Assembly (NCBI RefSeq): GCF_964204645.1
Contig: NC_134026.1
Coordinates: forward strand, 16,402,150 to 16,466,149
Reading direction: 5' to 3'
From: Tubulanus polymorphus
Taxonomy: Eukaryota; Animalia; Nemertea
Length of the DNA: 64,000 nucleotides
Shown: piece after piece, positions 1-42,324 of the stretch
How the letters are laid out: each line of letters begins with the position of its first letter
Numbering within the stretch: position 1 is the stretch's first letter
Translations under genes and position numbers: made by a program
Notes under the pieces: model-generated
Database searches by the model: none
Seen by the model: only the letters and a program-made list of their open reading frames with translations
What the model was told of the DNA's origin: nothing

Positions 1-102
1 GTAATATCTTTATTAAAATCTATTGCAGGAATATTATATTTAATTGATTTTTTATATTGGAAAGCTTTTGGAAAACTATCTGCCATTTATATAATTAAAA
101 AA

Positions 103-518
103 TTAATAATTAACTAATTCTTTTAATAATTTATCTTGTTCTTCAACTGTTATATGGCCATTTAAACTTATTATATAATCTAGTGTATTCTTTAATTTAT
201 TAATTTCTTTTATATTAGTTTTAATATTTTCTTTATTACTTTTTATATTTAATTTTGAACTTATACCGGTTAAAACACTTGAACTTAATCCTAATACACC
301 AAAGGTGTTAATGGACTGAATATTGCTAGAAATGTTATTACAGAACTAATTGTAACCGAACCACTTATAATCAAATAATATATAATTTTACTTTTTAGAT
401 ATTTTTTCTTTTTAACTTTTAAATCAAATTCTAATATTTGTTTTTCTAAATATGTTTTTAATTTAGTTTTATTTATATCATGAGGAATAATATCAATATT
501 ATCAACTTTATCTTCCAT
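103..518 (-). pseudogene. Polinton small membrane protein (frameshifted), homolog of 34171-34588
   Basis: ORF 291-518 has a hydrophobic stretch IIYYLIISGSVTISSVITFLAIF; the frame continues after a shift to about 103; TAAATG start. Confidence 0.7.
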
Positions 519-540
519 TTATTTAGCAAAAAAAAAATTA

Positions 541-963
541 CTAATTAGCAAACTTATAAGCAACAAATATAACAATAACAGTTCCACCTAAAATCCAAAT
601 TATTTCATATTTCTGTTGTTCTTTACTTGGTGTATAATAATCTGATAACTTAGGTTTGTATAGATGTAATTTTTCTTTATTGGTTACCGCGTTATATAAA
701 CTCATTGCATCATCAACTGATTGAAAATCTCTATGTGAAATCTTCTGATCATATAATTCCTTGTTAATAGAATCCATATAGTTTTGTCGTTTTTCTCTGT
801 ATTCTTCTGCTGCTTTATTGTATTTCTCTAATGCTAAGTTATGTCTTTTTTGTTCTGTTAATGATCCATTTTTATCAATATGTTTAAATAAATATCCACC
901 ACCAGTAAATGCCAAAGCGTTAACAATTGCCGATCCTATAATAGTTATAACTGCAGAAGCCAT
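541..963 (-). CDS. Polinton 140-aa protein with N-terminal hydrophobic helix, coiled coil and C-terminal TM segment
   Basis: Intact ORF MASAVITIIGSAIVNALAFTGGGYLF...EQKRHNLALEKY; near-identical copy at 33728-34150. Confidence 0.85.
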   Translation of the reverse strand: MASAVITIIGSAIVNALAFTGGGYLFKHIDKNGSLTEQKRHNLALEKYNKAAEEYREKRQNYMDSINKELYDQKISHRDFQSVDDAMSLYNAVTNKEKLHLYKPKLSDYYTPSKEQQKYEIIWILGGTVIVIFVAYKFAN

Positions 964-987
964 TTATTTAGTAAAATAATTATGTAT

Positions 988-1209
988 TTATATGGGAGGA
1001 ATATATTTTTGTTTTTCCAAATAATCAATAGTTAAATTAGATAAAGTAACTGCTAATGTTAATTTTGAAATATCATTTATATCAAATCTATCAACATTAA
1101 CACTTCCCATTTTGAATACTTTTTTTAATACCATTGAATAACCAACAGTTCCAACTGATAGTAATGCTCCATTATATAATCCAGTTATTATCCACTTATT
1201 ATCACTCAT
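988..1209 (-). CDS. Polinton 73-aa small hydrophobic protein
   Basis: Intact ORF differing by 1 aa from 33482-33703; TAAATG start. Confidence 0.85.
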   Translation of the reverse strand: MSDNKWIITGLYNGALLSVGTVGYSMVLKKVFKMGSVNVDRFDINDISKLTLAVTLSNLTIDYLEKQKYIPPI

Positions 1210-1566
1210 TTATTTATCAAAAAAATTACTATCATCAAAATATTTAGTTATCTTATTTATGATTAGTTCAACATTTATTTCATTACTAGTTTCATTTGTA
1301 TATATTTCAATTATTATTTTTTTAATATCATCGATGATAAAATCTTCATCTAATTCATAAAATCTTAAAGATTCTCTAATTAAATTAGTAATTTTTTCTA
1401 CATTTAAAGTTTCTTTATCTATTGTTGTTTCATACTCAAATGTTGTTTCATTAGAAAATGTAATATTTTTGATATGTGTAATTACATCATTAACGTTAAA
1501 TTTCATTTCTTTGTCACGTTTAAAATCAAATCCAAAACATATGCTCGGCCCAACAGTTATATTCAT
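1210..1566 (-). CDS. Polinton 118-aa hypothetical protein (variable between copies)
   Basis: Intact ORF with TAAATG start; homolog at 33145-33485 shares both ends but diverges in the middle. Confidence 0.75.
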   Translation of the reverse strand: MNITVGPSICFGFDFKRDKEMKFNVNDVITHIKNITFSNETTFEYETTIDKETLNVEKITNLIRESLRFYELDEDFIIDDIKKIIIEIYTNETSNEINVELIINKITKYFDDSNFFDK

Positions 1567-1582
1567 TTATATAATGAAAATA

Positions 1583-1850
1583 TTACTCATTACATCTTAT
1601 AACTAATTCATAAATTACAGGAAAGTTATTCAAATCAATTAAATATCCATTGTGATTTCTTATTTCTAATTTAGAATTATTAAATTGAGGAATGCAAGGT
1701 TTAAAATCACATTCTGTTAAATTATAATTTATTTGATTTCCAAATTGTTTAACATTTTTTAGCGGTAAAATAGTATACTAGAACTACAAATTGTTTCTTT
1801 AGTTGCTTCGAAAGTTTTTGTAGGCTCGATTAAATTGCAATAAATATAAA
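1583..1850 (-). pseudogene. 3' remnant of minor capsid (penton)-like gene
   Basis: Matches 32855-33127 of copy B; the 5' part is removed by a deletion of about 620 bp. Confidence 0.75.
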
Positions 1851-2084
1851 ATATGTTCTGAATTTATATGTATTTCCTTTTAATCCTTCATATTCTAAGT
1901 GTATAACTAATTTATCTCCATATTTGTTAGTAACTGTATCAATATTTGTAATTAGATATTTCTTATGGATTATTAATTCTTTTAACTTCTTAAATTTATA
2001 ATCTACTGATTTGACATTTGAAGTATCTTTTATTCTATCTAGAAATAATTTGTTGTTCTCACTGTGTGCTTGTTTACTCTCCAT
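1830..2084 (-). pseudogene. Polinton small protein downstream of pPolB, truncated by the deletion
   Basis: Nearly identical to the ORF at 32001 up to FRTY, then fused to the penton remnant. Confidence 0.75.
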
Positions 2085-2113
2085 TTATAATACATATTTT
2101 TATTAAAATTTGA

Positions 2114-5100
2114 TTAACACGTTAGAATTCTTTTCATTATCTCGTTCTCTTTTGTTTCTTCTCTTTTAAATTTTAAGTATTCATCTAAATTACAACCATA
2201 AGCAACTGTATGAATTCCATCATCTAAAATATATCGTTTATCATCAAATGGGTTTAGACTTATCTTTTCAATTTCTTCAATAAACATTTCATGATCTTCA
2301 GATCTTAAACATCTCATCTTATGTTTTCTAACTTCTTCATTGAATATACAATTGATGTAATCTTTGAAATGAATATTCTTTTCTACTAAACTTTTGGTTA
2401 TTCCTTTTAACTTTTTAGCTTCATGTTCTTTAGTTTTATATGAATACATTTTAGATCTAATACCGATGAATTCAGTCATTTCTTCACCACCTAATTCATC
2501 TTTGAATGTACCGGGAACTTTTTTATTATCATTGCTAAACAGTTCATGATCTTTAGGTTAGTTACTAAAATCAAAATGATGTTTTAATGTTTTTAAATCA
2601 TTAGTTATGTTATCAGTTTTTATCTTTAATATGTAACTGTCGGTATCAAAATATAATATTTCTATATGTTTTTCTCCAAAAAGTGGTTGTAACACATTAT
2701 AATAGAATTCATACATTAGTAATTTTGATAATTCTAAAACTGAAGCATCAACATAGATTGGTTTATTAAATTTCATTGACGTTCTTCTCATCTTAACTGC
2801 AGCTAAATTTTCATCAAATATTTTGTTACCAATGACTTTAGGATATGTTTGTAAATGTCTAATTCTTTTACCATTACTGACTAACTCAATATCATTTCTA
2901 TTTCTAATATTTTCACAAGTCTTACCATAGAATGCATTATTCATTAACTTGAAGAAATCTTTTTCGAAATCAGTTTTAGCTTCAGTTCTCTGTTTGGTGT
3001 TAAAATCTATATATTTTTCTAACCACTTAGATTGACTAAATGAAATATATCTATGTACTTTTTTTAGAACCATTCCTTGTTTTAGATAAAACTTTAACAT
3101 TCTATAATGTACTACATAATTATATTTATCTTCTTGAGTTACCATTAACTTTTCTGTATGAATATGATTTTCGGCTTTAATTCTTTTTTGGTAATTTGAT
3201 AATTCTTCATGAGTTACAGTTTTATGTTATGGACAGCAAGCTAGATTTCTAGATTTAAATTTCATATGTTCAGGATATTCTAAATCTACAACAAATAAGT
3301 AACCAGTATCTGAATCATCTGCAATATCTAGAATTCTTTTCTTCCAATCAAATTTATCATTATTTTCATTCTGTAAAACTTCACTTATTTCAAATACTCC
3401 ATAAGGTTGTGGTTCCATCATTGCCCAACCATACAAATTATTTGCATCTATATATAATAACTTATATCCAGGGTTATCATTTACATTGAAATATCTATCC
3501 CCTTATACACCTGAAACACCTCCTCTTATAGATTTTTCAAATAAAAATAATTGATCTATATTTGTTAACAAATCCATTTTTATATCTGTAAATTTTAATC
3601 GAAAATCCCATGTTAATCCTGGTGATGAATAACAATGACATGGATCAATGTTAAAATATTTTAGGTTTACATCTCTAAACCTTTCGAATATATCGGTTAA
3701 TATTAATACATCTGATTTTAAATATAAATCTACTAATTGCCCGTGATTTTCTATTTTGAAATGATTCCAAATATTCAATGTTCTATTATATACTTCATCT
3801 TTAACATATTCATTTTTTAATTCATCATAGAATTGTTCTTTCAATAATTCAGTTATATTGAAATCATTATGTGATTTATAAAATGAATATGGAATTGCTC
3901 CTTTATATCTCATTAATTTAAATCATCAATATTTGGGTAGTGTTGTTTTAATATTTGTAATTCATCATCAACTAATGATTTTGATAAGTTATCTAATGAA
4001 CTATTTAAAAATCTATATGAATCTATAAATCTTAGGCAACCAAATTGGAATGATATATAATTCTCAGATGTTTTAGCTAACATTCTAAATTTATAAGTTG
4101 GTATTTTATCTTTTGATCTATTTGAATTTAATCTTTCTATTTCATTATTAATTTCTTCTATTTTATGACATAACTGTTTGATAAATAAATGTGCATCATA
4201 TACTGATAGATTATGAAATATAACTGGTACAAAGTTAATTTTCTTAGCTTGTAAGTTACAATTCTCATGTGCAGCGCCTCTAAACTTTCCATTCAAATGA
4301 TCATGGTCATAATTAAATATCTTTTCACAATAATAACATTTATCTGCAAACTCAAATTCTTCTTTATCTTCTTCTGTCATTATAATTTCGATATTTTTAT
4401 TTAACTTTTCATTAAATTTTATTTCATATTCAATTAATAAGTCACAAAAATGATTAATAACATATTCATTTCTATAATGATAATACTCACTTTCAATTAG
4501 TTCTGGATGATCAGATTTTATATATAACCCGAAAGCAGCAGCTGATTGATGAATCTTTTTAATAGTATATGTTTTTGGTGGTTCATCTGAAAAATCATTT
4601 ACTTTAGAATTTAATTTCTTTCTTTTATAATATATTTCTTTTCTATCTTGATCAGTTAATTCTTTATTTAATGATTCAAAATCTCCATATATAACAAATT
4701 GTACTTTATTTTTGTAATCATGTTTTTTTGAATTCTAATATTTTATCCTTTTTATTTGGTAAAACTAATTTACAATAATCATGATTTTCACATAATTGTT
4801 TATGATTTAATAATGTACTTTCATTACTGAATTTATGTAAACATTATTATTATCTACATAGATATATTTTATTATGGTGATCACTTTCTGTTCTAAAGAA
4901 TAAATCTATTTGTTTAATCCACATATAATGATTCTCATAATATAATATATCTATAACATCGTTTGAATCATAATCTTTTGATAGATATAAAGGTTCTAAT
5001 GTATAATGTTTTATATTATTACCTTTTGTATTTGGTAATTTGATTAAATCAAATACATTTATCTTTATATTATTATCTCTTTCTATTTTTGGGATGTTTT

Positions 5101-6129
5101 TAATTATAACAGGATACTTATCTATCTTATAATTATTTTCAAATGGTTTATAATGAGTTAATCTAAAACTATGTGTAATATCTTCTGTTGGATGTAAGCA
5201 ACTTATAATTGTCCATAGAAAACATTTATCATCAAAATTTTGTACATTTATTACAGCATTAGTTTTAAATGGTAATTTGATATAACTTGATCCATTTATA
5301 CTATCATCTTTATAATATGATACATTATTTTCATCTATTGGTTTCGATTTAGTTATCTTATTATATATTGTGTTATAAACATGTAAAGTCATAAATATTA
5401 TCTCATCAAATATTAAACCAGACCCTTCAAAATATTTCTCTTCTATTTTAGTTTTTACTTCATTATAACATCATCTATATGTTGTTTAGATATAATATGT
5501 TGTGAATGAGAATTTATATTATATATTGGTTTATCTTCAGATTTTATAAACTTTACTTTAACTGATATACTAATTTTAGGGTATTCAACATCAGTTATTA
5601 TTTTTATTATTTCTTTCATATTTTCTAAATGTTTTTTATTTTCTTCTAATGTTTTTCCTTTATGAAATTTAAACTCGATAGCTGCTGGGCCAATATCACT
5701 TTTAAATGCTTCGGTTATCTCTATATCTTTTTTACTATCTAATCAATTAATATATTTTCTTACATCTTCCATGTATGGTCTTTTATTGTTTGATTTATTT
5801 TTTATGCTTTTAATTGACTTCTGTTTCTTATCATTATCTTTATCAAAATAATCTTCACCTAAAATATCATTATTCTTATTTCTAATATGACTTTTAGATT
5901 TTAAATGTTCATTATAATATCTTTTATCACTGAATGATTGATTACATGTATCACATTTATATATTTCTTTTTCATTCTTTAATTCATCTAATTTAGTTTC
6001 TAATATATCATCGTTATATTCTAATTTCAATTTATTCTCTAAATGTGTTTTAGTTTTATTGTGTCTTGCTTTTTGGGATTTATCTATATTGATATTACAT
6101 GTTGGGCAGTAGTACTTATTTGCTTCCAT
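2114..6129 (-). pseudogene. Protein-primed family B DNA polymerase (pPolB), fragmented
   Basis: Consecutive ORF fragments with N-terminal C2H2 fingers, HNLSVYDAH (ExoII), YLKSDV (ExoIII), YGWAM, KLMNNAFYGK, YFDTDS and C-terminal DDKRY; several stops and frameshifts. Confidence 0.93.
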
Positions 6130-6367
6130 TTTAATACTAAATTTTTTTTTTAAATTGATTTTAGAAGTTCAATGATTTATATTATGTATTACTTCAATCA
6201 CACTTTACAAAATGTTTTAATGTTTAAAAATCTAACTCATACAAATATGAATATTGAAATAATGTTTAAAATATATCTATATATCTATTCTATAAGAGCT
6301 CGTTAATTACTCGTTACTTATATATGTTATTCATTTATATTTTATTCATATATATGAATATTTTAAG

Positions 6368-6557
6368 AGTAATAGGGATAATAGGCTTTCATATCAAAGG
6401 TTGAAGGGGCGAGTGAGTAAAAAAATGAAAATAATAATAATTTACAGTTGAATTAGGAGTGTGCGCAACTAATTCAACTGTAAATTATTATTATTTTCAT
6501 TTTTTTACGAGCTCGACCCTTCGACCTTTGGTATGAAAGCCTATAACCCCTATTACT
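6368..6557. repeat. 190-bp terminal palindrome (hairpin module) of Polinton copy A
   Basis: AGTAATAGGG...TTACAGTTGAATTAG, loop of about 12 nt, CTAATTCAACTGTAA...CCCTATTACT; arms about 89 bp with few mismatches. Confidence 0.92.
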
Positions 6558-20162: not shown

Positions 20163-20182
20163 TTATGGATTGATGCATTCAT
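18716..20182 (-). CDS. LINE ORF1: RRM-like region + two CCHC zinc knuckles + SGNH esterase-like domain
   Basis: CTHCGGTDHSSYHC, CFNCGSVEHIKRDC; IVIGDSNI, HLGTCDV, SGIHIS. The true start is probably the internal Met of MSNINRDLS. Confidence 0.85.
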   Translation of the reverse strand: MNASIHNTKWRIVDTFTDRALQNLSYFRCIISAAMSNINRDLSIAFNLSQYRGKLAHQDIINGINVRIDVSNILAIQLTPKQCIITVKDADSKRALCSGPLIIKDTDISLHDVTKNVVSIKVVDAPIELDDRTIVSFMSKYGTYIAGSIKRGKIKGTEIFTGTRYLQLCDVSEVIPTYTKFGDFNIRLYCDENRTNCTHCGGTDHSSYHCALKPPRIEPRKCFNCGSVEHIKRDCPVLIDSSDHNPPENPNILLPDNMTETERQPAIENVEKTKIVIGDSNIRDIQFGEDFHVVCAPGGGFENFEKHLISLCEPVLDPDKIDTVIIHLGTCDVNRHKKDPDSVKVNTSTSIAKTMERFRNAKIHVSSILPKRGNSSKSNEINEVINSVNSYTMRLCEQQGIPFIDNNRVFKPQGTVLEQYYAMSDSSGIHISRSGKNALLDNFLSSITREDDGDTFVTPAKSGKKRNRSDRSTPSPSVSQSVKKASIK

Positions 20183-27274: not shown

Positions 27275-27845
27275 AGTAATAGGGGTTTAGTTGGTTCAAG
27301 CCAAAGGTCGAACGGTCGAGCCCATTAAAAAACAAATATTAAAAGTAATTTAAAACTATAATATATTTTCATAGCCGTGTGCATTTTATATTATAACTAA
27401 ATATTTATTCTAAGATATTAATAATTTAAATTTTAAAAGCATATTAGTCGCTCCGCTTCGCTCCCGCTCCGCTCCGCGACCAATCGATTTATTTACAATA
27501 CACAAATTCATATAATCAAATATATTTTAATAATAATAATTATTCTATTATTCAACTGAAATACACACGGCTATGAAAATATATTGTAGTTTTAAATTAC
27601 TTTTAATATTTGTTTTTTAATGAACTCGACCATTCAACCTTTAACCTGAACCAACTAAACCCCTATTACTCTTTAAATATCTATATATATGAATAACATT
27701 TGAATTGACAGATTATTCAATATAAAAGTGTGAGCTCTTATAGAATAGATATATAGATATATTTTAAACATTATTTCAATATTTATATTTGTATGAGTTA
27801 GATTTTTAAACATTAAAAGTGTTAGTAAAGTGGGATTGAAATAAT
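27275..27845. repeat. Left TIR, containing the hairpin module 27275-27670
   Basis: Reverse complement of 41782-42324; internal inverted arms of about 110 bp at 27275-27385 and 27560-27670. Confidence 0.95.
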
Positions 27846-27902
27846 ACATACATAAATCATTGAACTTCTAAAATCAATTTTAATAAAAAATTTAGTATTG
27901 AA

Positions 27903-28173
27903 ATGGAAGCAAATAAGTACTACTGTCCAACATGTAATATCAATATAGATAAATCCCAAAAATCAAGACACAATAAAACTAAAACACATTTAGAGAATAA
28001 ATTGAAACTAGAATATAAAGATGATATATTCGAAACTAAATTAGATGAATTAAAGAATGAAAAAGAAACATACAAATGTGATACATGTAATCAATCATTC
28101 AGTGATAAAAGATATTATAATGAACATTTAAAATCTAAAAGTCATATTAGAAATATGAATAATGATATTTTAG

Positions 28174-28209
<36 letters not shown>

Positions 28210-31200
28210 TTGATAATGATAACGATAAGAAACATATGACAATTAAAAGAATAAGAAATAAATTAAACAATAAAAGACCATACATGGAAGATGTAAGAAA
28301 TTATATTAATTCATTAGATAATAAAAAAAATATAGAGATAACTGAAGCATTTAAAAGTGATATTGGTCCAGCAGCTATCGAGTTTAAATTTCATAAAGGA
28401 AAAACATTAGAAGAAAATAAAAAACATTTAGAAAATATGAAAGAAATAATAAAAATAATAACTGATGTTGAATACCCTCAAATTAGTATATCTTCTAAAG
28501 TCAAGTTTATAAAATCTGAAGATAAACCAATATATAATATAAATTCTCATTCACAACATATTATATCTAAACAACATACAGATGAAAAATTAGATAAATG
28601 TTTTAATGAAGTAAAAACTAAAATAGAAGAGAAATATTTTGAAGGATCTGTTTTAATATTTGATGAAATAATATTTATGACTTTACATATTTATAACACA
28701 AAATATAATAAGTTAACTAAATCGAAACCAATAGATGAAAATAATGTATCATATTATAAAGAACCAGATATTGAAGCATCGAGTTATATTAAACGACCAT
28801 TTAAAACTAATGCTGTTATAAATGTACAAAATGAAGATGATAAATGTTTTCTATGGGCAATAATTAGTTGTTTACACCCAGTTGAAGATTATAAACAACA
28901 TAGTTTTAGATTAACTCATTATAAACCATTTGAAAATAATTATAAGATAGATAAGTATCCTGTTAGAATTAAAAACATCCCAAAAATAGAAAGAGATAAT
29001 AATATAAATATAAATGTATTTGATTTAATCAAATTACCAAATACAAAAGGTAACAATATAAAACATTATACATTTGAACCTTTATACCTATCAAAAGATT
29101 ATGATTCAAACGATGTTATAGATATATTATATTATGAGAATCATTATATGTGTATTAAAAGAATTGATTTATTCTTTAAATCAGAAAATGATTTTGATAA
29201 TAAAATATATCTATGCAGAAAATGTTTACATAAATTCAGAACTGAAAGTGCATTATTAAATCATAAACAATTATGTGAAAATCATGATTATTGTAAATTA
29301 GTTTTACCAAATGAAAAAGATAAAATATTAGAATTCAAAAAATATGATTACAGAAATAAAGTTCAATTTGTCATATATGGAGATTTTGAAACATTAAATA
29401 AAGAACTAACTGATCAAGATAGAAAAGAAATATATTATAAAAGAAAGAAATTAAATTCTAATGAAAATGATTTTTCAGATGAAACACCAAAAACAAATAC
29501 AATTAAAAAGATTCATCAATCAGCTGCTGCTTTCGGGTTATATATAAAATCTGATTATCCAGAACTCATTGAAAGTGAATATTATCATTATAGAAATGAA
29601 AATGTTATCAATCATTTTTTGTGACTTATTAATTGAATATGAAATAAGATTTAGTAAATCATGGAATACAAATAAAGAAATTATAATGACAGAAGAAGAT
29701 AAAGAAGAATTTTTGTTTGCAGGTAAATGTTATTATTGTGAAAAGATATTTAATTATAAAGATAAAAAAGTAAGAGACCATGATCATTTGAACGGAAAGT
29801 TTAGAGGCGCTGTACATGAGAATTGTTACTTACAAGCTAAGAAAATTAAGTTTGTACCAGTTATATTTCATAATCTATCAGGATATGATGCACATTTATT
29901 TATCAAACAGTTATGCCATAAAATAGAAGAAATCAATAATGAAATAGAAAGATAAAATTCAGATAGATCAAAAGATTAAATACCAACTTACAAATTTAAA
30001 ATGTTAGCTAGAACATCTGAGAATTATATATCATTCCAATTTGGCTGCCTAAGATTTATAGATTCATATAGATTTTTAGATAGTTAATTAGATAACTTAT
30101 CAAAATCATTAGTTGATGATGAATTAAAAATATTAAAACAACACTACCCAAATAATGATGATTTCCAATTAATGAGATATAAAGGAGCGATTCCATATTC
30201 TATCTATAAAAATCATAATGATTTCAAAATAACTAAACTTAAAAAGGAACAATTTTATGATGAATTAAAAAATGAATATGTTAAAGATGGAGTTTTTGAT
30301 AGAACGAATAATATATGGAATCATTTTAGAATAAAAAACCATGGTAAATTAGTAGATTTGTATCTAAAATCTGATGTTTTATTATTATCGGATATATTCG
30401 AAAGGTTTAGAGATGTAAACCTAAAATATTTTAACATTGATCCATGTCATTGTTATTCATCACCAGGTTTAACATGGGATTGTGGATTAAAATTTACAGA
30501 TATAAAAATGGATTTGTTAACAAATATAGATCAATTATTATTATTTGAAAAATCTATAAGAGGAGGAGTTTCGGGTATATTAGGTGATAGATATTTCAAT
30601 GTAAATGATAACCCCGGATATAAGTTATTATATATAGATGCAAATAATTTGTATGGATGGGCAATGATGGAACCACAACCTTATGGAGTATTTGAAATAA
30701 GTGAAGTTTTACAACATGAAAATAATGATAAATTTGATTGGAAGAAAAGAATTCTAGATATTGCAGATGATTCAGATACTGGTTACTTTTTGTTGTAGAT
30801 TTAGAATACCCTGAACATATTAAATTTGAATCTAGAAATCTAGCATACTGTCCAGAACATAAAACTGTAACTCATGAAGAATTATCAAATTATCAAAAAA
30901 GAATTAAACCCGAAAATCATATTCATACAGAAAAGTTAATGGTAACTCAAGAAGATAAATATAATTATGTAGTACATTATAGAATGTTAAAGTTTTATCT
31001 AAAACAAGGAATGATCCTAAAAAAGTACATAGATATATTTCATTTAGCCAATCTAAATGGTTAGAAAAATATATAGATTTTAACACCAAACAGAGAACTG
31101 AAGCTAAAACTGATTTCGAGAAAGATTTCTTCAAGTTAATGAATAATGCATTCTTTGGTAAGACTTGTGAAAATATTAGAAATAGAAATGATATTGAGTT

Positions 31201-31968
31201 AGTTAGTAATGGTAAAAGGATAAGGCATTTACAATCATATCCTAAGTTTTTAGGTAACAGAATATTTGATGAAAATTTAGCTGCAGTTAAGATGAGAAGA
31301 ACATCTATGAAATTTAACAAACCAATCTATGTTGGCGCTTCAGTTTTAGAATTATTAAAATTACTAATGTATGAATTCTATTATAATGTATTACAACCAC
31401 TTTTTGGAGAAAAGCATATCGAAATATTATATTTTGATACAGATTCTTACATATTAAAGCTAAAACTAATAACATAACAGATGATTTAAAAACATTAAAA
31501 CATCATTTTGATTTCAGTAACTATCCTAAAGATCATGAATTGTTTAGCAACGATAATAAAAAAGTTCCCGGTAAATTCAAAGATGAATTAGGTGGTGAAG
31601 AAATGATTGAATTCATTGGTATTAGATCTAAAATGTATTCATATAAAACTAAAGAACATGAAGCTAAAAAGTTAAAAGGAATAACCAAAAGTGTAGTAGA
31701 AAAGAATATTCATTTCAAAGATTACATCAATTGTATATTCAATGAAGAAGTTAGAAAACATAAGATGAGATGTTTAAGATCTGAGTACCACAAAATGTTT
31801 ATTGAAGAAATAGAGAAGATAAGTTTGAATCCATTTGATGATAAAAGATATATTTTAGATGATGGAATTCATACAGTTGCTTATGGTTGTAATTTAGATG
31901 AATGCTTAAAATTTAAAAGAGAAGAAACAAAAGAGAACGAGATAATGAAAAGAATTCTAACGTGTTAA
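27903..31968 (+). pseudogene. pPolB (C2H2 fingers, putative terminal-protein/OTU-like protease region, Exo with CxxC..DHDH insertion, Pol), fragmented
   Basis: DDKCFLW...ENHY; YGDFE; CYYCE...RDHDHLNGKFRG; HNLSGYDAH; YLKSDV; YIDANNLYGWAM; MNNAFFGK; YFDTDS. Confidence 0.95.
28176..28208 (+). repeat. (TAT)11 microsatellite inside pPolB
   Basis: GYYYYYYYYYYYFD here versus GEDYFD in copy A. Confidence 0.9.
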
Positions 31969-32000
31969 TCAAATTTTAATAAAAAAAATATGTATTATAA

Positions 32001-32354
32001 ATGGAAAGTAAACAAGCAAACAGTGAGAACAACAAATCATTTCTAGATAGAATAAAAGATGCTTCAAATGTCAAATCAGTAGATTATAAATTTAAGAAGT
32101 TAAAAGAATTAATAATCCATAAGAAATATCTAATTACAAATATTGATACAGTTACTAACAAATATGGAGATGAATTAGTTATACACTTAGAATATGAAGG
32201 ATTAAAAGGAAATACATATAAATTCAGAACATATTTACCAGATAGATTTCATAGATTATCAAGTGAAGATTAAGAAGAATTATGTTCTGGTGATTTCTAT
32301 TTCGTATACAAAGGTAAGAATGAAAAAGGCCACCATGAAATAGATTTCGAATAA
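32001..32354 (+). pseudogene. Polinton small protein (117 codons, one premature stop); beta-rich, possibly OB-fold-like
   Basis: Frame continues past the stop at 32271-32273 to 32354; fold assignment is a guess. Confidence 0.65.
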
Positions 32355-32368
32355 AATATATAAAATAA

Positions 32369-33127
32369 ATGGCGGAATTAAAAGAATACAGAATATTTGT
32401 TGATTCTAGAAGACTTTCAAATTATAAATCACATAATTTACTAGTACAATTAGATAGAGAATTCAAGAATTGTGTTGATTTAAAATTAGTTAATATAAGT
32501 TTATGTAATTCTTTTTACAATGTATCGGATAAAACTATTGAACATAGAGTCTTTTTAATTCATGATAGAAATAAAAGTAAATGGTTTCATCTTTATCTTA
32601 AACCAGGATTATATAATTTAGATACATTAGCGCAGGAAATTAATAGAAGAGCTCGGTTGAAAATGGGTGCATCTGCTGGATTTGGATTAAGACTGATTAA
32701 AAGTGATAGCTCCGATAAAATAAGGATAAAATTAGGTAATGAAGATCAACATCAATTTCTAGTTAAAAAACCTTTTGCTTAAATTTTAGGAATAACCCCA
32801 GATGTAGGGATACGCAATGCTGATGCTACACCAAACTTAATACCTTTTACACACTTTTATATTTATTGCAATTTAATTGATCCTACAAAAATATTCGAAG
32901 CAACTAAAGATATAACTTGTAATTCTGGTTTACTAAACATTTTACCATTGAAGAATGTTAAAGAATTTGGAACGCAAATAAATCATAATTTAGCCGAGTG
33001 TGATTTCAAACCATGCATTCCTAAATTTAATAATTTTAAATTAGAAATAAGAAATCATAATGGATACTTAATTGATTTAAATAATTTCCCTGTAATTTAT
33101 GAATTAGTTATAAGATGTAGAGAGTAA
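32369..33127 (+). pseudogene. Minor capsid (penton)-like protein, one premature stop
   Basis: RIFVDS...LVNISLCNSFYNV...LKPGLY...YIYCNLID...IRNHNGYLIDLN pattern resembles Polinton pentons; 253 codons in one frame. Confidence 0.7.
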
Positions 33128-33144
33128 TATTTTTCACTATATAA

Positions 33145-33485
33145 ATGAATATAACTGTTGGACCGAGTATATGTTTTGGGTTTGATTTTAAACATGGTAA
33201 AGAAATAAGAATTAAACTAAATGATGTAATTACTGATATAAAAATAAATCATATAACAATGCATCAATGATTAATAAAGAAAATTATAATATAGAAAAAG
33301 TAATTGATTTAATTAAAACGCCTTTAGAATATTATGAATTAAATGAAGATGGAATTATTGATGATATTAAAAACATATCCAAAATATATGATAATCATAA
33401 AAGTAGTAATGAAATAAATGTTGAAATAATCATAAATAAGATAACTAAATATTTTGATGATGTAATTTTTTTGATAAATAAATGA
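33145..33485 (+). pseudogene. Hypothetical protein, frameshifted homolog of 1210-1566
   Basis: MNITVGPSICFGFDFK start and SNEINVE..INKITKYFDD end are shared with copy A. Confidence 0.7.
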
Positions 33486-33703
33486 GTGATAATAAGTGGA
33501 TAATAACTGGATTATATAATGGAGCATTACTATCAGTTGGAACTGTTGGTTATTCAATGGTATTAAAAAAAGTATTTAAAATGGGAAGTGTTAATGTTGA
33601 TAGATTTGATATAAATGATATCTTAAAATTAACGTTAGCAGTTACTTTATCTAATTTAACTATTGATTATTTGGAAAAACAAAAATATATTCCTCCCATA
33701 TAA
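33482..33703 (+). CDS. 73-aa small hydrophobic Polinton protein
   Basis: Intact and conserved with copy A. Confidence 0.85.
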   Translation: MSDNKWIITGLYNGALLSVGTVGYSMVLKKVFKMGSVNVDRFDINDILKLTLAVTLSNLTIDYLEKQKYIPPI

Positions 33704-33727
33704 ATACATAATTATTTTACTAAATAA

Positions 33728-34150
33728 ATGGCTTCTGCAGTTATAACTATTATAGGATCGGCAATTGTTAACGCTTTAGTATTTACTGGTTGTGGTTATT
33801 TGTTTAAACATATTGATAAAAATGGATCATTAACAGAACAAAAAAGACATAACTTAGCATTAGAGAAATACAATAAAGCAGCAGAAGAATATAGAGAAAA
33901 AAGACAAAACTATATGGATTATATTAACAAGGAATTATATGATCAGAAGATTTCACATAGAGATTTTCAATCAGTTGATGATGCAATGAGTTTATATAAC
34001 GCGGTAACCAATAAAGAAAAATTACATCTACATAAACCTACAATATCAGATTATTATACCCCAAGTAATGAACAGAAGAAATATGAAATTATTTGGATTT
34101 TAGGTGGAACTGTTATTGTCATATTTGTAGCATATAGGTTTACTAATTAG
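33728..34150 (+). CDS. 140-aa Polinton membrane/coiled-coil protein
   Basis: Intact and conserved with copy A. Confidence 0.85.
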   Translation: MASAVITIIGSAIVNALVFTGCGYLFKHIDKNGSLTEQKRHNLALEKYNKAAEEYREKRQNYMDYINKELYDQKISHRDFQSVDDAMSLYNAVTNKEKLHLHKPTISDYYTPSNEQKKYEIIWILGGTVIVIFVAYRFTN

Positions 34151-34170
34151 TAATTTTTTTTGCTAAATAA

Positions 34171-34588
34171 ATGGATGATAATATTGATATTATTCCTCAT
34201 GATATAAATAAAACTAAATTAAAAACATATTTAGAAAAACAAATATTAGAATTTGAAAGTGACTTAAAAATTAAAAAGAAAAAATATTTAAAATCTAAGA
34301 TTATATATTATCTTATTATTAGTGGTTCGGTTACAATTAGTTCTGTAATAACATTTCTAGCAATATTTTCACCATTAACAGCTTTAGCTATATCAATTGG
34401 TGTATTAGGATTAATGTGTTTTAACTGGTATAAGTTCAAAATTAAATATAAAAAGTAATGAAGAAAAAATTAAAACTAATATAAAAGAAATTAATAAATT
34501 AAAGAATACACTAGATAATATAAGTTTAAATGGTCATATAACAGTTGAAGAACAAGATGAATTATTAAAAGAATTAATAAATTATTAA
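34171..34588 (+). pseudogene. Two-TM Polinton protein, frameshifted
   Basis: Homolog of 103-518 with a different lesion. Confidence 0.7.
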
Positions 34589-34604
34589 TTTTTTTATTAT
34601 ATAA

Positions 34605-34900
34605 ATGGTAGATAGTTTTCCAAAAGCTTTCCAATATAATAAATCAATTAAATATAATATTCCTGCAATAGATTTTAATAAAGATATTACATATAGAAAT
34701 GAAGTTTTAAATTCATTAATTGATTTATATATTTATGTTACTGAAAGTAATAATTTTCATGTAAAGATGGAAAATATATTTCATGTGTATACAATTAATT
34801 TTAGAATTTAAATGAGGCAAAACAATGGTTATTAAAATCTAATATGAAATACTAAATTAGCTTAAACTTGTATAGGAATTGTAATCGGAGGAATATTATA
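34605..34900 (+). pseudogene. Small hypothetical Polinton protein (3' end approximate)
   Basis: TAAATG start; homolog begins at 86 on the minus strand in copy A. Confidence 0.55.
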
Positions 34901-34929
34901 TTTTAAATTTTAATTTTTTTATTATGTAA

Positions 34930-35930
34930 ATGGCAGAAGGAGGTGGAGAAGATTATGAAATGGAAAACAATGGAAATAATGATGATGATAATACTAACAG
35001 TGATGATTATATGTCTGCTGATACTAATATTGATAATGATGATGAATCAGCATATAATTCTAATTTAACAGATAGTGGTTCTTAAGCCCCATCAACAGTT
35101 GAAAATGATAGAAGAACTAGATCGAGAATAGCTCCTGAAAATTTTAATCCAGATTTAGAAAGACAAGATTTAGAAAATAAAAAATTTATTGATGATTTTA
35201 AAACCTATATTTAAAGATTCTGGATATAATATAAATGCCAATTTTTCAATGGTGAATATTATTATCATTTGAAAGATGATTATTATATTAATATCACTTA
35301 TAAAAAACAAGAAAAAATATTAGCAGAATCAACTTTGTTTAAGTAAGACCCATCTAGAATTAAAAGAATAAGAAATAGTAATGAAATAGAAAATGTAACA
35401 CAAGAAGAAATTATTAAAAATGAAAGAGTATTTAAACAAAGAATTAATAAATTATTTGAAACAATCGATAATAATTTAGAACCAGAAACAATTCTTAAAG
35501 AAGTTATTAATTCCAAAACTAGTAAACCTAAATCAAACGAAGTTCAAACTGAAAAACTTTTACAGAAGGGATTACTTGATGCAACAGATCAAGAAATAGA
35601 AGTTTTAAGTATGTTTTCTGATAAAGCAATTAGAGAAATTATTAGTATACGAAATGAAGCTGATAAAATTGCGTGCGATAAAAATATTAGATATAATGAA
35701 ATTAAACCTTTAGAAAATAAATTATTTGACACCAGAAAAGAATTAGAACAATTAAAATTAGATAGAGAATTTAAAGTTATTGAAGAAATTGAATTTAAAA
35801 AAAGAAATGCATATTTAGAAAAAGAAATTGATGATTTAGAATATAACATAGAATTTCAGAAAGAAAAAATGAAATTATTATTAAAATCATATGATTATTG
35901 TATTAATAGATTAAAAGTTGTTGTTAAAGA
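34930..35930 (+). pseudogene. Large acidic/coiled-coil protein (MAEGGGED...), broken and apparently 3'-truncated
   Basis: TAAATG start at 34930; internal stops and a frameshift; coiled-coil ORF from 35611. Confidence 0.6.
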
Positions 35931-35937
35931 GTTAATA

Positions 35938-36117
35938 CTACATCTAATAATGCAATACTTTCTACATCTAATAATGCAATACCTTCTACATCTAATAATG
36001 CAATACCTTCTACATCTAATAATGTAATACCTTCTACATCTAATAATGCAATACCTTCTACATCTAATAATGTACCTTCTACATCTAATAATGCAATACC
36101 TTCTACATCTAATAATG
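35938..36117 (+). repeat. 24-bp tandem repeat, 8 copies (PSTSNNAI in one frame)
   Basis: CTACATCTAATAATGCAATACCTT units. Confidence 0.92.
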
Positions 36118-36673
36118 AAATAATATTAAATATTAGTGGAAATAGAACTTATTGTGATTATTGTAAAGGTGAATTTTCAAACGCCCCATCAAATTGGAAT
36201 AAAAATATGAATACAAAGGTACATATTACTAATGTTATAGAACGTGTTGGTTTAAGAGAATTTATAGAACACCGTTTAGATATGTTACAAAGTTTGTTTC
36301 AAATAAAAAAGTAAATGGTAAAGAATTATATGAACATTTATTATTAGCAACACCTAATAAAGATGAATTAGATTTAACCGATGCTAATAAAATATTAGGA
36401 GCAAACACTGTAAATGAAATATTAGGAGCAAACACTAATAAAGATGATAATGAAAATATAGTTACAGATAAGCATATTGATAATAAAGATTCTATGAAAC
36501 AGAAAGTAGAAAATAATGATAAATTTGATTGGATGAATAAGCATAACAATGAAACAACTATTGATGATGCGGTAAAAAGGACGAAGAATAAGCATAAAAA
36601 TAAAACAACTCTTAATGAAGATACGGTAGAGAATTTGGGAAAATTGTTAGGGTATGATAGTGAAAGTGATTAA
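36118..36673 (+). pseudogene. 3' fragment of a gene with a zinc-finger-like motif
   Basis: GNRTYCDYCKGEFSN...KVH, ending LGKLLGYDSESD*. Confidence 0.45.
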
Positions 36674-36761
36674 AATATTAATGATATTTAACTCAAATAA
36701 TAATATTGGTTGAAAATTGTATAGAATAATAGTAAATAAAAAGGGGGTTTTAAGTATTTAA

Positions 36762-36876
36762 GGTATCTAATCTAATGGGGTATCTAATTGGGTATCTAAT
36801 AGGGTACTAGGTATTACGGTATCTAATTGGTATCTAATACATAGGTAACTAATAGGGTATCTAATATATAGGTATA
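36762..36876. repeat. GGTATCTAAT motif cluster between the convergent gene blocks
   Basis: About 5 exact and several degenerate copies. Confidence 0.7.
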
Positions 36877-36883
36877 TAAATAG

Positions 36884-37491
36884 TTATTTTATAAATTTAT
36901 ATTCATATGGAAATTGAAGCCTCAGTAATAATTTTGAACCTTTATTATTCTTTAATTTATTCATATATTCATCATGTAATTCAGTAGGTATAATTTGATT
37001 TTCTAATGATTGTTGCATAGATTTTTTATCTTTGTTATAAAATAAAACTAGAAATCTTATATTCTCCCTAAAGTCTTTAACAATTGAATTATATTTTTGA
37101 TTTAAAACCCATGTTGTTATCCCGAAATGTCTCCCAGAAAAAGCTAAATAACATAGCTCACTTTCTCTCACTTTTGAATCATGTAAATTTGCGCAATCAT
37201 CTATAATGAATAATGTATTTGATCCTTTATAAGTATCAATCGCTATTTTAATACAATTATCTAAATTTTCTTTTACTGTTTTAGGATCTAATATAATAAA
37301 CTTTTTCATCTTAACTATATCTCTATTATATGTTTTATTCATTTCATAAGTAGGACAGAATAATATTATATTATCAAAATGATTCTTATAAATAGTTACT
37401 AACAAATCTAATATGAAATGTGTTTTACCACAGTTTGTTACTCCAGTAACTAACATATTATGTGGTTCAAATATAATAAATCTTTATTCAT
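36884..37491 (-). CDS. A32/FtsK-like DNA packaging ATPase (frameshift just after the predicted start at 37491)
   Basis: Walker A GVTNCGKT, Walker B LFIIDD, GRHFGIT motif, LNQKY. Confidence 0.9.
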
Positions 37492-38575
37492 TTATTCTTT
37501 TAATTTTACTAGATAAAATCCATTCATTAAATTTATCATCATATCCTTTATATTTCACCAAAGAATACTTTTTTCCTTTTAGAGTTTTTGTTTACAATAC
37601 TTTTTCTATTTTGTATTCTATTTCATCTGGATTTGGTACAAGTGATAATTCTTGTTCATAGAAATAACCTAATATTTCTTCGTCTTTTAGATCTTCTAAT
37701 TTATAAACAAAAGGTTTAGTTAATATTATCTTTTTAATCTTAAATATTTCTTCAGTAAAATTAGGGGTATAACCTTTATAAAATGTTTTTCTATATTTAG
37801 ATATTCTAACGTATCGTCCAATTTTAAATTTAGGTTCACCAAAATCATGTGTAACAAATGCTCCATATAAATTATTCCAAACTATTTCTGAATTATCTTC
37901 TTTTCTAGCTTGTATAGGTTTCATTTTTCTAGAACTATGTTTAGAACTATTATAACCTTTCACCAAATCATCTAACATATCGATATATTCGTATGTTTCA
38001 TTAGCAGTAAAATATTTCCACATTCTAGATTTCAATGTTTTATTAAATCTTTCTATAATAGATGCTTTTTTATCTGAATGTGTTGAAAAATAATCAACAT
38101 CGTTATCAGATAATAGTTTTTAAAAATGTTTGTTATAAAATTCCTTACCTTCATCAAATTGTATCTTACCTGGAATAGCTTCTTTAAATATAGATTTAAA
38201 AGCATTTGTTACTTCTATTCCAGTTTTATTTTTGATTGGAATTGACCATGCGTATCTACTGAATATGTCTGTAACATTTAATATCCAGAAATATCCTTTG
38301 TTGTATTCTTCTAAGTTCTTCATATCAATTAAATCTGCTTGCCATTGTTGATCAATATATGAAACCATAACTTTTCTCGTTAAATAAGTTTTATCCATTT
38401 TCTTGTGGATTTGATATGTTGGTTGATTTTGTAACCATGATTTCAATTCACTATATTTTACATTACCATTTTCTTTATCAGATTTAATTTTATTCCATAA
38501 TTCTGTAACGTTAGAATATGATACTTCACTTTCTGGGTTATAATATAACTCTCTTAAATATTGTTCTTTTTTCAT
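37484..38575 (-). pseudogene. Retroviral-like (rve) integrase with C-terminal chromodomain, two in-frame stops
   Basis: WQADLID, IQFDEGKEF, ASIIERFNKTLK; chromodomain EYKIEKVL...LVKYKGYDDKFNEWI; single frame of 364 codons. Confidence 0.93.
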
Positions 38576-38581
38576 CTTATT

Positions 38582-39552
38582 TTAATCCATTAATAATAAT
38601 TTAGATTTAGTTTCAATGGCTTTATGATTTGACTTATTTTCTGGTATGATAGGTTTATTGTCTGTACACGGATAACTAAGTTTCCGATTATGATTGGAAT
38701 CATCTTTATCATCAGATTTGAATTTTGATTTATATATTACACCGGATGATATAATAACTGTTACTAATCCAATTGTAATATATAAGTAATTATTTCTTCC
38801 AGCATTAGAATAATTAGATGGATTATTATTTGAATCAATAACAGATAATTTCTGTGATTCATTTATATCAGTCAATTTCTTTTTCTTAGCTTTTTTTAAT
38901 TCTGCAGATCTTTTACCTAATTCTCTTGCCCATTTAATTTGTTTCTCGGATTTAGTTAATTTTTGTTCTGATTCATTTTCTGTTTCACCGTTTGGTTGTA
39001 GTACAGCGTCATCTGTTTCGTTCTTACCTGATTTATATTCCATAGGCTTGATATTCGAAAATGTTATGACACCAGTAGAAATTAATGTCATAACCGATCC
39101 TAATTGAAATGAAGCATAACCAACCCATTTTTGTAATTCAGTCATAACTAAGTAGTCATTTTTCAAATCACTACATAATTTATTTTCATCATCAATTGAC
39201 ATTAACTGGTTACATAACTTAGAATAACATTTGACAATACCATCTGAAATAGAATCATTTATTCTAGCTAATGTAGCTTCTTCATAAATCTTAAAATATT
39301 TTATTACTTTATCTGGTTTCATAGTACTAATTCTTGAAAAGTAATAGTCTTAGTCAAAAATTGTTTAGATTTCCCGCCGGCAATTAATAATTCAAGATGG
39401 TGTTTACAATATAAGTAGTATTCATAATCTATATTGTTATTAACTTGAATATTATTTTCAATTTTGGTTGGAATATCCTTATTATCACTAATACCTAAAT
39501 CATCTAATGTTTTTTCAATATCAATATTATTCTTACTCGATTTCTTTGACAT
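38582..39552 (-). pseudogene. Hypothetical protein with TM segments (ORFs 39319-39552 and 38582-39322, probably one frameshifted gene)
   Basis: Overlapping ORFs with a single TAAATG start at 39552. Confidence 0.6.
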
Positions 39553-39800
39553 TTATATTAGAGAAATTTAATAAGAAAAATATTATAAGTATTATAAAAT
39601 GATACCAGTATCTCTTTAGATTAATACTAGCTTAGTTAAAGGTAAAAAAATTTAGTATTAGTTATTGTTTTTTTAGTATTTTTTATTTGTGATATAAAGT
39701 ATTCTTTTTTGAAAAGAAAATATTTAAAAAAACAATAACTAATACTAGCTAGTTGAAGATATGTAATTTTTAATACTTTTTATTTAAAATCTATTATTCT

Positions 39801-40466
39801 TTAACCACTCATTAAAGACTCAACGTATTGTTCATTATTTGGATCATTGTTCCATTGATCAATAAATTTCTTTGCCTTTGTTAACTGTTCTAAATATAAC
39901 TGTAAATCTAGTTTATTAGATTTTATTTTACTTTCTTTCTTTTCAAGAGGTCTTAAATTTTTCCAACCCCAAATAAGTTTTTTATTGTATTAATCATTCA
40001 TGTTAAATTTAGATATCGGTAATGTATGATCAATATGAAAATAATCTCCATAATTATCTATATTCATTTGACTATCGAATTGAAATATAATCCATGATTT
40101 GAGAAATTCATCTGAACAACCCAACAAATTAGATAATGTTTCTGAATGTGTTTCTTTGTTGAATAATTGTGTTAATCTAGATCTTAAGCATTGTTTCAAT
40201 CTAAAATTAAGATCTGTTTGATATCTTTCTCTCATATATTCTGCCATATAATAATTATAATGTTCTATATTATCTTCTCGGTATTGTTTGGTATATAGTT
40301 TAGTGCAAGTTTTACAGCAATATTGAAAACCATCTTTGCTAATCTTACGCTTACTAAATTCTGTTAATGATTTATCTAATTCACACTTAGAACACTTCTT
40401 GTAGTATATATTTATAACGCCGGTGTTATTTGTAATATTGATAGTTTGTGGTTGTTCTGGTTCCAT
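39801..40466 (-). pseudogene. HNH/endonuclease VII-like protein with an N-terminal zinc ribbon, one premature stop
   Basis: KCSKC...SKDGFQYCCKTC; FHIDHTLPISKF...WKNLRPL; frame continues past 39990 to 39801. Confidence 0.8.
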
Positions 40467-40648
40467 TTATTATACATATTTTTTTACTAAATTGGTTAAT
40501 ATTTTAGAATCCTCTTCCATTTCTTCGACCAACGTCATCCTTTTTCATTCCTCGCTGCTTTTGATAAGTCGTTTCGATTCCTTGATATCTAAATCATATC
40601 AGCTACAATACCCGCGTCACATGCGGGCATACAGGAGCGCTTTTGCTT

Positions 40649-40925
40649 AATGCGCATGCGCTAATCATAATTATATATTCATTTTATAAATTCTGTAAAA
40701 TAGAAACGACCGGCATAAAATATCAAAACGTGTTCGCATTAGGCAAGACCGGGCATTCAGGCCCGGTTTGGATCAATGCGCATGCGCTAATCATAATTAT
40801 ATATTCACTCTGTAAATTCTGTAAAATAGAAACGACCGGCATAAAATATCAAAACGTGTTCGCATTAGGCAAGACCGGGCATTCAGGCCCGGTTTGGATC
40901 AATGCGCATGCGCTAATCATAATTG
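40649..40925. repeat. 126-bp tandem duplication (2.2 units)
   Basis: AATGCGCATGCGCTAATCATAATT at 40649, 40775 and 40901. Confidence 0.92.
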
Positions 40926-41781
40926 AAACGACTGAACATAAAAATTCACCAAACAGATTTACACAATACACTATACAAGTATGTTCAGTCGTTTCTTCCA
41001 ATACATCATTTGATTTCTATATATAAAATCTATAATTACAAACATTTTTCAATTGCCGGTAAATATTTAACTACATCAACAAATGTTAAACTTAATCATT
41101 GGAGTCTTAATGTTTTTGAAATTCTCATATAGTTTCTTCGTTGATCTTTTGTGATTCTTGTGTTTCTTGTGCCAATTTCTATTGGTTAGATATCCATTGC
41201 TGTTGATTCCTCAGTCAGAAAGAGTATCTTGAGTTTCTCTATCGCTTCTTGATGCGTATGACGTTTTATTAATCTAAAAGATATTAGCGGTAACTCTAGC
41301 TATCTAAAATATATACTAAATACACGTAAATATATCTAAAGGTTTCATATTTAATAGCCCTAATAACTACAAAAAAAACAGTACTTACATTTAGATTTAG
41401 AATTGTAAACTATAAACTCCTAATTGCGTTTCGAGAGAGAATATCCTAAGCGTTATGTTACATCGTCTATTCAGTTCCGGTGCGATTTCGAAATGAACAC
41501 GTCGTCGATTATGCCACGTCATCTAGTTCCGGTACACCTTCTAAAATGTTCTACACGTTTGTGATTATGACGTGTCATCTCTATTCAGAGTTCCGGTACA
41601 CCTTCTAGAATATTCTACGCGTTTGCAATATTATGTCTCATATGTCTCGGCGTCATAGTAACAGCTGTAACAGCTGTGAATTTATAGATTTATTCAATAG
41701 TTCATTACATGAAATGTATATAGGCTCAAATAGAATCATGTTCTAGTATAAACAGCTATGTATTATATCATGTATATATGA

Positions 41782-42324
41782 ATTATTTCAATCACACTTT
41801 ACTAACACTTTTAATGTTTAAAAATCTAACTCATACAAATATAAATATTGAAATAATGTTTAAAATATATCTATATATCTATTCTATAAGAGCTCACACT
41901 TTTATATTGAATAATCTGTCAATTTAAATGTTATTCATATATATAAATATTTTAAGAGTAATAGGGGTTTAGTTGGTTTAGGTTAAAGGTTGAATGGTCG
42001 AGTTCATTAAAAAACAAATATTAAAAGTAATTTAAAACTATAATATATTTTCATAGCCGTGTGTATTTCAGTTGAATAATAGAATAATTATTATTATTAA
42101 AATATATTTGATTATATGAATTTGTGTATTGTAAATAAATCAATTGGTCGCGGAGCGGAGCGGTAAAATTTAAATTATTAATATCTTAGAATAAATATTT
42201 AGTCATAATATAAAATGCACACGGCTATGAAAATATATTATAGTTTTAAATTACTTTTAATATTTGTTTTTTAATGGGCTCGACCGTTCGACCTTTGGCT
42301 TGAACCAACTAAACCCCTATTACT
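41782..42324. repeat. Right TIR, containing the hairpin module 41957-42324
   Basis: Reverse complement of the left TIR with a deletion of about 28 bp in the hairpin spacer. Confidence 0.95.

Follow-up and report, generated by a model that had tools for sequence, protein, structure and literature searches.

A Polinton in the genome of the nemertean Tubulanus polymorphus and most of its relatives carry a motif matching the poxvirus late promoter at their start codons

Whether animal Polintons are autonomous or live as parasites of large viruses is an open question that has so far offered almost no experimental handle. A Polinton in the genome of the ribbon worm Tubulanus polymorphus (Nemertea) raises it anew—why do nearly all of its genes begin within the same six bases, TAAATG, and which polymerase would read such starts? 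The element, here called copy B, occupies positions 27275..42324 of a 64,000-nucleotide stretch of assembly GCF_964204645.1 (contig NC_134026.1, positions 16,402,150 to 16,466,149 of the forward strand), the whole of which we refer to as the window; a second copy, copy A, lies at 1..6557 on the minus strand and is cut by the window start. A preliminary description of the window had likened these starts to poxvirus promoters and proposed that the element depends on a poxvirus-like virus. We find that the start motif of the family to which this Polinton belongs matches the poxvirus late promoter in both of its parts.

Within the window, TAAATG had been reported at 11 of 13 copy B starts, and we recovered each of these at its reported position; the total is 13 because two further gene remnants (matches at 38974-38648 and 35955-36343) have no start that can be placed. 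The two exceptions are also as described, namely TAAGATG at the integrase (38575) and TGAAATG at the protein-primed DNA polymerase B (pPolB; 27903), which reads TAAAATG in copy A. By comparison, TAA precedes 32 of the 621 other ATGs of copy B (5.2%; binomial p 5e-13 for 11/13), and set against the TAA frequency of AT-rich upstream DNA (34/416) the p-value is 7e-11. A simulated null that takes the first ATG after a stop gave the motif in 75 of 1104 cases (6.8%), while among all ATGs of the host flanks within the window TAAATG accounts for 28/764 and 18/738. A blind test on open reading frames (ORFs), in which pieces of broken genes count as starts, returned 8/18 versus 17/231 in the plus-strand module (p 7.5e-5). 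The motif is retained in copy A, at six of seven homologous starts, and its TAA is mostly not an upstream stop codon: none of the 11 in copy B ends an upstream frame of more than 20 codons, and one of six in copy A ends a 118-codon ORF.

The same motif runs through a family of relatives. We aligned the packaging ATPase of the window with 49 of at least 120 listed homologues (50 rows) and obtained 80 of 91 confirmed metagenome loci; these and the control Polintons described below are numbered loci, labelled L001 and so on. Starts were accepted as checked if they belonged to one of 14 gene families judged real and matched another locus at the N-terminus, with one start kept per locus and family and identical upstream sequences removed. 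Of 263 such starts in 80 loci, 187 are TAAATG and three TAGATG, and in 17 hand-picked loci spread over the ATPase tree the count is 82/86. When all ORFs of at least 70 amino acids (aa) in the relatives are taken, TAA precedes 233 of 425 starts versus 392 of 10071 other ATGs. In 16 of the 187 cases the TAA also closes an upstream ORF. Family ATPases are 32-82% identical to that of the window, and the motif is kept; it is kept, too, where GC content reaches 33-45%, with 2/2 starts in L011 (45% GC) and 7/7 in each of L031, L036, and L041 (38-39% GC). The pPolB of L033 (171-4212) has a strong PF03175 score, and neither piece matched the window pPolB (27903-31968) by tblastn, so the family holds different pPolB types and the motif persists through a swap of the replication gene. 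In the L027-L069 group, moreover, the start of a divergent gene of ~410 aa lies antisense inside the ATPase codons Pro-Phe-Asn, where codon choice is nearly fixed—the codon pair spelling TAAATG is found in 32 of 34 TAAATG-type ATPases versus one of nine TATA-type loci (counts not deduplicated; the TATA type is treated below), and a synonymous codon there would yield an equally good stop-start, TGAATG.

Upstream of TAAATG lies the second part of the motif. At the 187 family starts, T reaches frequencies of 0.87, 0.73, and 0.75 at -14, -13, and -12 (G+C makes up 1-4% of bases at the first two of these), whereas at 279 non-start TAAATG sites T is flat across the same positions (0.35, 0.33, and 0.32). 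At least two of these three bases are T in 165/187 starts versus 75/279 non-start sites. The peak is seen in 12 of 13 gene families, the remaining one being represented by a single start, and it stands at 144/166 after removal of the family that starts antisense within ATPase codons, which was left out because its upstream DNA is coding-constrained. The layout at nearly all family starts is a T-run, an 8-base spacer, and TAAATG, and -3 is T in 193 of 237 starts (nine TATA-type loci excluded). In the vaccinia late promoter, TAAAT(G) lies over the start codon and a conserved T occupies the tenth base upstream, -13 in our numbering (PMC11980589), and TAAATG has served to mark late genes in salmon gill poxvirus and in an entomopoxvirus (PMC4542343, PMC3061580). 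The likeness is stronger than the preliminary description had seen, with both parts and their spacing holding family-wide.

That description had also separated T-tract from A-tract starts and compared them with late and intermediate promoters, respectively. Both sequence forms are indeed present, but they do not mark two classes of gene: homologous genes switch between them, the capsid gene having the A-tract form in L015, L024, and L040 and the T-tract form in L001. Among the window's 11 TAAATG starts, seven have at least two T at -14 to -12 and four have an A-tract ending in T. A division into intermediate and late genes is not supported, as a T at -12 or -13 is retained where the tract is of A and members of one gene family may differ in form; a separate class of the poxvirus intermediate type, with an AT-rich tract 15-19 bases before TAAA and no T at the tenth base, was accordingly rejected. 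We read the A-tract and T-tract forms as one promoter type.

A comparison with other Polintons, which had been suggested as a check, showed the motif to be rare among them. Integrase and pPolB searches yielded 89 further Polinton-like loci, in which TAAATG stands at 24 of 334 checked starts, against 187/263 in the family. For ORFs of at least 120 aa in loci of at most 35% GC, the counts are 23/181 in controls (30 loci) versus 104/143 in the family, and the control figure falls to 9/159 without three TAAATG-rich loci. The control starts have a purine at -3 in 223 of 316 cases (four TAAATG-rich loci left out).

Because the T-run, 8-base spacer, and TAAATG match the layout of a poxvirus late promoter, we consider it probable that a poxvirus-type virus infecting the same cells, as yet unseen, transcribes the family with its late machinery and that the element would propagate as the virophage of this helper, whose existence we infer from the promoters. 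This reading draws together the motif, its spacing, its conservation in the family, its rarity elsewhere, the double jelly-roll capsid of the relatives, the lack of an RNA polymerase subunit in the genes scanned, and integration in many copies. By analogy with vaccinia and Mavirus, the helper polymerase would start within the AAA of TAAAT, slip, and add a poly(A) leader; in vaccinia, slippage at TAAAT yields such leaders (PMC6211774). With a leader of this kind, the T at -3, a poor Kozak base, would be missing from the mRNA, which would account for a T at that position. All genes would be switched on late, in the cytoplasmic factory of the helper, and between infections the element would be kept in host chromosomes through its integrase.

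Several observations weigh against this reading. A motif this short and AT-rich could have arisen by convergence, for another polymerase; the linear plasmids of yeast (pGKL), for example, combine a TAAAN initiator with poly(A) leaders (PMC6211774). Neither the 87 family ORFs nor the other window and relative ORFs scanned include a gene of clear poxvirus origin. TAAATG occurs as well in Polintons outside the family that have other capsids or ATPases, at 7/9, 5/5, 5/7, and 5/10 long ORFs of L084, L104, L137, and L144, respectively; the T peak is weak in these four loci (0.4 at -14, n=20), and L084 and L137 carry the standard PF21738 capsid. The blind ORF test was weaker on the minus-strand module of copy B and not significant there (2/9 versus 5/79, p 0.15), and since the loci share ancestry, p-values on pooled starts overstate their independence. 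Finally, some members lack the motif—L114 and L116, which belong to the family by profile score, have TAAATG at 0/15 and 0/4 starts, and nine loci (L016-L019, L021, L023, L025, L026, and L080) have it at 0/26.

In these nine loci, a set chosen by eye ahead of counting, TATA lies within 12 bases of the ATG at 22/26 starts versus 99/977 of all ATGs; L023 (49% GC) has it at 8/10 starts versus 21/402 of all its ATGs. The TATA-type loci are dispersed over the ATPase tree (built from 48 rows of at least 185 aa), and a single TATA-type clade was rejected (approximately unbiased test, p 0.015) in an 18-row capsid tree with long branches from which the near-copies L006, L025, and L034 had been left out. 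A TATA few bases ahead of the ATG resembles the late initiator of African swine fever virus (ASFV), TA(+1)TA, where late 5' untranslated regions have a median of 9 bases (PMC7163114). TATA-rich starts were also seen by eye in unrelated Polinton-like viruses (PLVs; L089, L091, L098, and L106), so the motif does not single out asfarviruses. Taken further, and only tentatively, the family may be a widespread endogenous lineage of poxvirus virophages whose promoters record the helper, with switches between poxvirus-type and asfarvirus-type (TATA) promoters more than once and a separate gain of TAAATG in the Polintons with other capsids. As a separate observation, a Bcl-2 family gene (L023:2448-2861, plus strand; PF00452, E 2e-18) adjoins the capsid gene in a TATA-type element.

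The motif might instead be read by a helper polymerase from outside the poxviruses, one that belongs to a different nucleocytovirus lineage or to a cytoplasmic linear plasmid resembling yeast pGKL2, with a TAAAT-type initiator. Besides the pGKL starts already mentioned, the TATA-type members (22/26 versus 99/977) suggest that helpers may vary, and a literature search for poxviruses of non-insect invertebrates turned up bat work only. We nevertheless regard a helper of this sort as unlikely, given that a T placed upstream at the distance found in vaccinia characterizes poxvirus late promoters and that the upstream element of pGKL is described as resembling poxvirus early promoters (PMC6211774). 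Alternatively, the element could be autonomous and nuclear, with the motif serving as a family-specific core promoter or translation signal used by host polymerase II, possibly aided by a factor that the element encodes, and with a likeness to poxvirus promoters that is convergent. Its many copies in nuclear DNA would fit such a life, autonomous PLVs are known (PMC11296320), and several conserved proteins have no known function, among them one of ~440 aa with a low-confidence structure model (predicted local distance difference test, pLDDT, 41.5) and no usable match in the Atlas. Against autonomy stand the T at -3, contrary to the purine of other Polintons, and the lack of any polymerase or transcription-factor domain in the window and relative ORFs scanned. 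A promoter that ends on the start codon at every gene, leaving no 5' untranslated room, is moreover unlike the usual polymerase II layout, and we judge this explanation unlikely.

AT-rich DNA, tight stop-start packing, or ORF calling is very unlikely to have produced the motif as an artefact. Any ATG that follows a TAA in its own frame is necessarily the first of that frame, and copy B is 75% AT; however, the simulated calling bias amounts to 6.8%, TAA is the upstream stop in 16/187 cases, and TAG precedes 3/263 starts, while AT-matched Polintons reach only 23/181, the motif holds at 38-45% GC, and the T peak at -14 is left unexplained. AT bias, stop-start coupling, and ORF-calling bias were thus rejected by the AT-matched, simulated, and upstream-stop controls.

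Copy B itself is bounded by AG...CT termini, a flanking 6-bp duplication (GATACA), and inverted repeats. The left terminal repeat region (27275..27860, plus strand) has two arms, 27275-27435 (99% pairing to the right end) and 27464-27860 (97%), and the right region (41767..42324, minus strand) pairs with the left. A 6-bp target site duplication is a hallmark of Polintons, or Mavericks, and copy B combines it with the terminal inverted repeats, pPolB, rve integrase, and A32-type ATPase that also mark this group. Besides these three genes, all broken, it has an ORF of endonuclease VII/HNH-like type and some ten others that are small or unknown. The pPolB (27903..31968, plus strand; start context TGAAATG) is split into at least five ORFs with matches to PF03175 and PF02945; queried with the copy A fragment, its nearest named relatives are from spiders and one beetle, at 52-55% identity to the spider-named pPolBs. 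One pPolB relative of 1693 aa, P0381, carries PF14890 and PF14528 domains, which we take to be intein and homing-endonuclease families.

Downstream on the plus strand, TAAATG starts follow one another closely. An upstream A-tract accompanies the start of a conserved small ORF of 90 aa (31986..32003), after which comes the start of a homologue of a 254-aa ORF of L001 (32354..32371), with only a weak DUF5901 match (E 0.014). T-runs precede the starts of a small ORF (33130..33147), a conserved 73-aa small protein (33467..33484), a conserved 140-aa protein (33713..33730), and a frameshifted gene (34156..34173). They also precede two further starts—that of a conserved gene of ~410-440 aa, of which a remnant of about the first 83 codons is left (34590..34607), and that of a broken homologue of a 485-aa ORF of L001 (34915..34932).

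On the minus strand, the A32-type packaging ATPase (36884..37491; PF04665, E 3e-10) is broken close to its 5' end, and its TAAATG start (37489..37506) lies within the end of the integrase frame. The rve integrase (37493..38575; start context TAAGATG) is broken as well, with a PF00665 match in a fragment (E 1.4e-6); in the relatives L001 and L033, rve and chromo domains score above cut-off. A T-run and TAAATG (39550..39567) begin a broken homologue of a conserved ORF of ~200 aa, and an A-tract and TAAATG (40464..40481) begin the endonuclease VII/HNH-like ORF at 39990-40466 (phrog_1035, E 7e-16), the sole gene named by a PHROGs search. An Rfam search of copy B gave no match.

Copy B is an internally deleted Polinton whose major capsid gene is gone, as a tblastn search with the capsid gene of its relatives found no match in the window; this broken, capsid-less relic could be mobilized only in trans. 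Tandem repeats of a 24-bp unit mark the internal deletion junction (35938-36117), and a 126-bp duplication lies near the right end (40624-40875). The sequence TTTTTNT is rarer on coding than on opposite strands (10 versus 37 in 27903-36700; 4 versus 14 in 36884-40466), a deficit for which the A-rich coding strand may account.

In the relatives, a 415-aa ORF gives a confident double jelly-roll model (pLDDT 86.5; 18-row alignment), for which the best Foldseek matches are iridovirus (E 6e-17) and PBCV-1 capsids; the capsids of Sputnik and Mavirus rank below these, at 46-49. This capsid has 2939 relatives at 50% clustering. It has no Pfam match, and PF21738 does not match it, though it matches L084, L096, and L137. 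Searches of 21 window ORFs, the ORFs of L001 and L033, and 87 further family ORFs, mostly from partial contigs, turned up no adenain, no RNA polymerase subunit, and no poxvirus transcription factor. Scans of IMG/VR with the ATPase, the ATPase alignment, and the capsid alignment found no relative, nor did a GTDB scan with the ATPase alignment, and when PDB sequences were searched with the capsid alignment, the single match was due to chance. L001 additionally encodes a deoxynucleoside kinase (L001:10340-10981, minus strand; PF01712) with a T-run/TAAATG start.

The element is integrated in nuclear DNA in many copies. Copies A and B are ~90-96% alike over most matched stretches, and in a DNA run with the same species label, read depth across 27202-42226 is mostly 400-800 versus 10-11 in the left flank, about 55-fold; most reads covering the element are 90-95% alike, and depth goes down to 100-200 at 35015-36817. 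A third, small remnant (61910-62748) comprises inverted repeats and a piece of a small conserved ORF that is nearer to L001 (70%) than that of copy B is (31%). Elsewhere in the window, a LINE-type retroelement (15772-20182, minus strand) contains an ORF with a zinc knuckle and a GDSL-like domain, followed by a reverse transcriptase piece; the first ORF starts in ACAAATG, without TAA.

If the family is indeed transcribed by a poxvirus-type helper, the virophage strategy would extend from the giant viruses of protists to poxvirus-type viruses. If, further, the promoters record the helper, Polinton start contexts would predict undiscovered poxvirus-like viruses in hosts for which none is known, and the copies in their genomes might protect such hosts in the way that Mavirus protects protists. 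A conserved helper-type promoter would name the kind of polymerase, predict transcripts headed by poly(A) that begin at the start codon, and sort Polinton lineages by likely helper from sequence alone.

Promoter borrowing by virophages is known in protists, and what appears to be new here, judging from sequence, is a poxvirus late-type motif in a Polinton family. We found no description of TAAAT promoters in Polintons in the literature searched, which mostly excluded subscription journals. The word "promoter" does not occur in Starrett et al. (PMC8502044) or in a preprint on polisuvirus mosaicism (10.64898/2026.10.13.758929), and the available text of preprints on protist PLVs and virophages (10.1101/2025.10.09.676808, 10.64898/2026.07.28.741278) discusses only motifs of the type used by Cafeteria roenbergensis virus (CroV).

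Among known systems, the family resembles the virophages Mavirus and Sputnik (Maveriviricetes, EMALEs) in being small integrating double-stranded DNA elements with pPolB, rve integrase, ATPase, jelly-roll capsid, and a helper-type late promoter. Every Mavirus gene has the late promoter of CroV upstream, and infection activates the endogenous copies (PMC6723459); among EMALEs, promoter motifs vary from clade to clade, and reactivation is confined to the CroV-like ones (10.1101/2025.10.09.676808). Here, by contrast, the motif is of poxvirus rather than CroV/mimivirus type, the host is probably an animal, the helper is inferred, and other capsids outrank those of virophages as fold matches. The entomopoxvirus-associated PLVs (AHEV_PLV1 and AHEV_PLV2, along with CBEV_PLV1), sequenced from occlusion bodies (Barth et al. 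2024, PMC11296320), are likewise Polinton-like, have mosaic replication genes, and have been proposed as poxvirus hyperparasites. They have an adenovirus-type protease and no detected rve integrase, which sets them apart from the family here, with its rve-chromo integrase and no protease match; neither "promoter" nor "motif" occurs in the main text. With the Mavericks/Polintons termed adintoviruses (Starrett et al., PMC8502044) the family shares pPolB, rve integrase, A32 ATPase, inverted repeats, and the 6-bp duplication, but its capsid has no PF21738 match and it has no adenain match; in most other Polintons the -3 base is a purine and TAAATG is absent. The vaccinia late promoter, finally, is like the family motif in that TAAATG covers the start codon and a T some 10 bases upstream is conserved (PMC11980589); the family peak lies at -14 (0.87, with 0.73 at -13), one base off the vaccinia position, and late promoter function and poly(A) leaders are predicted for it.

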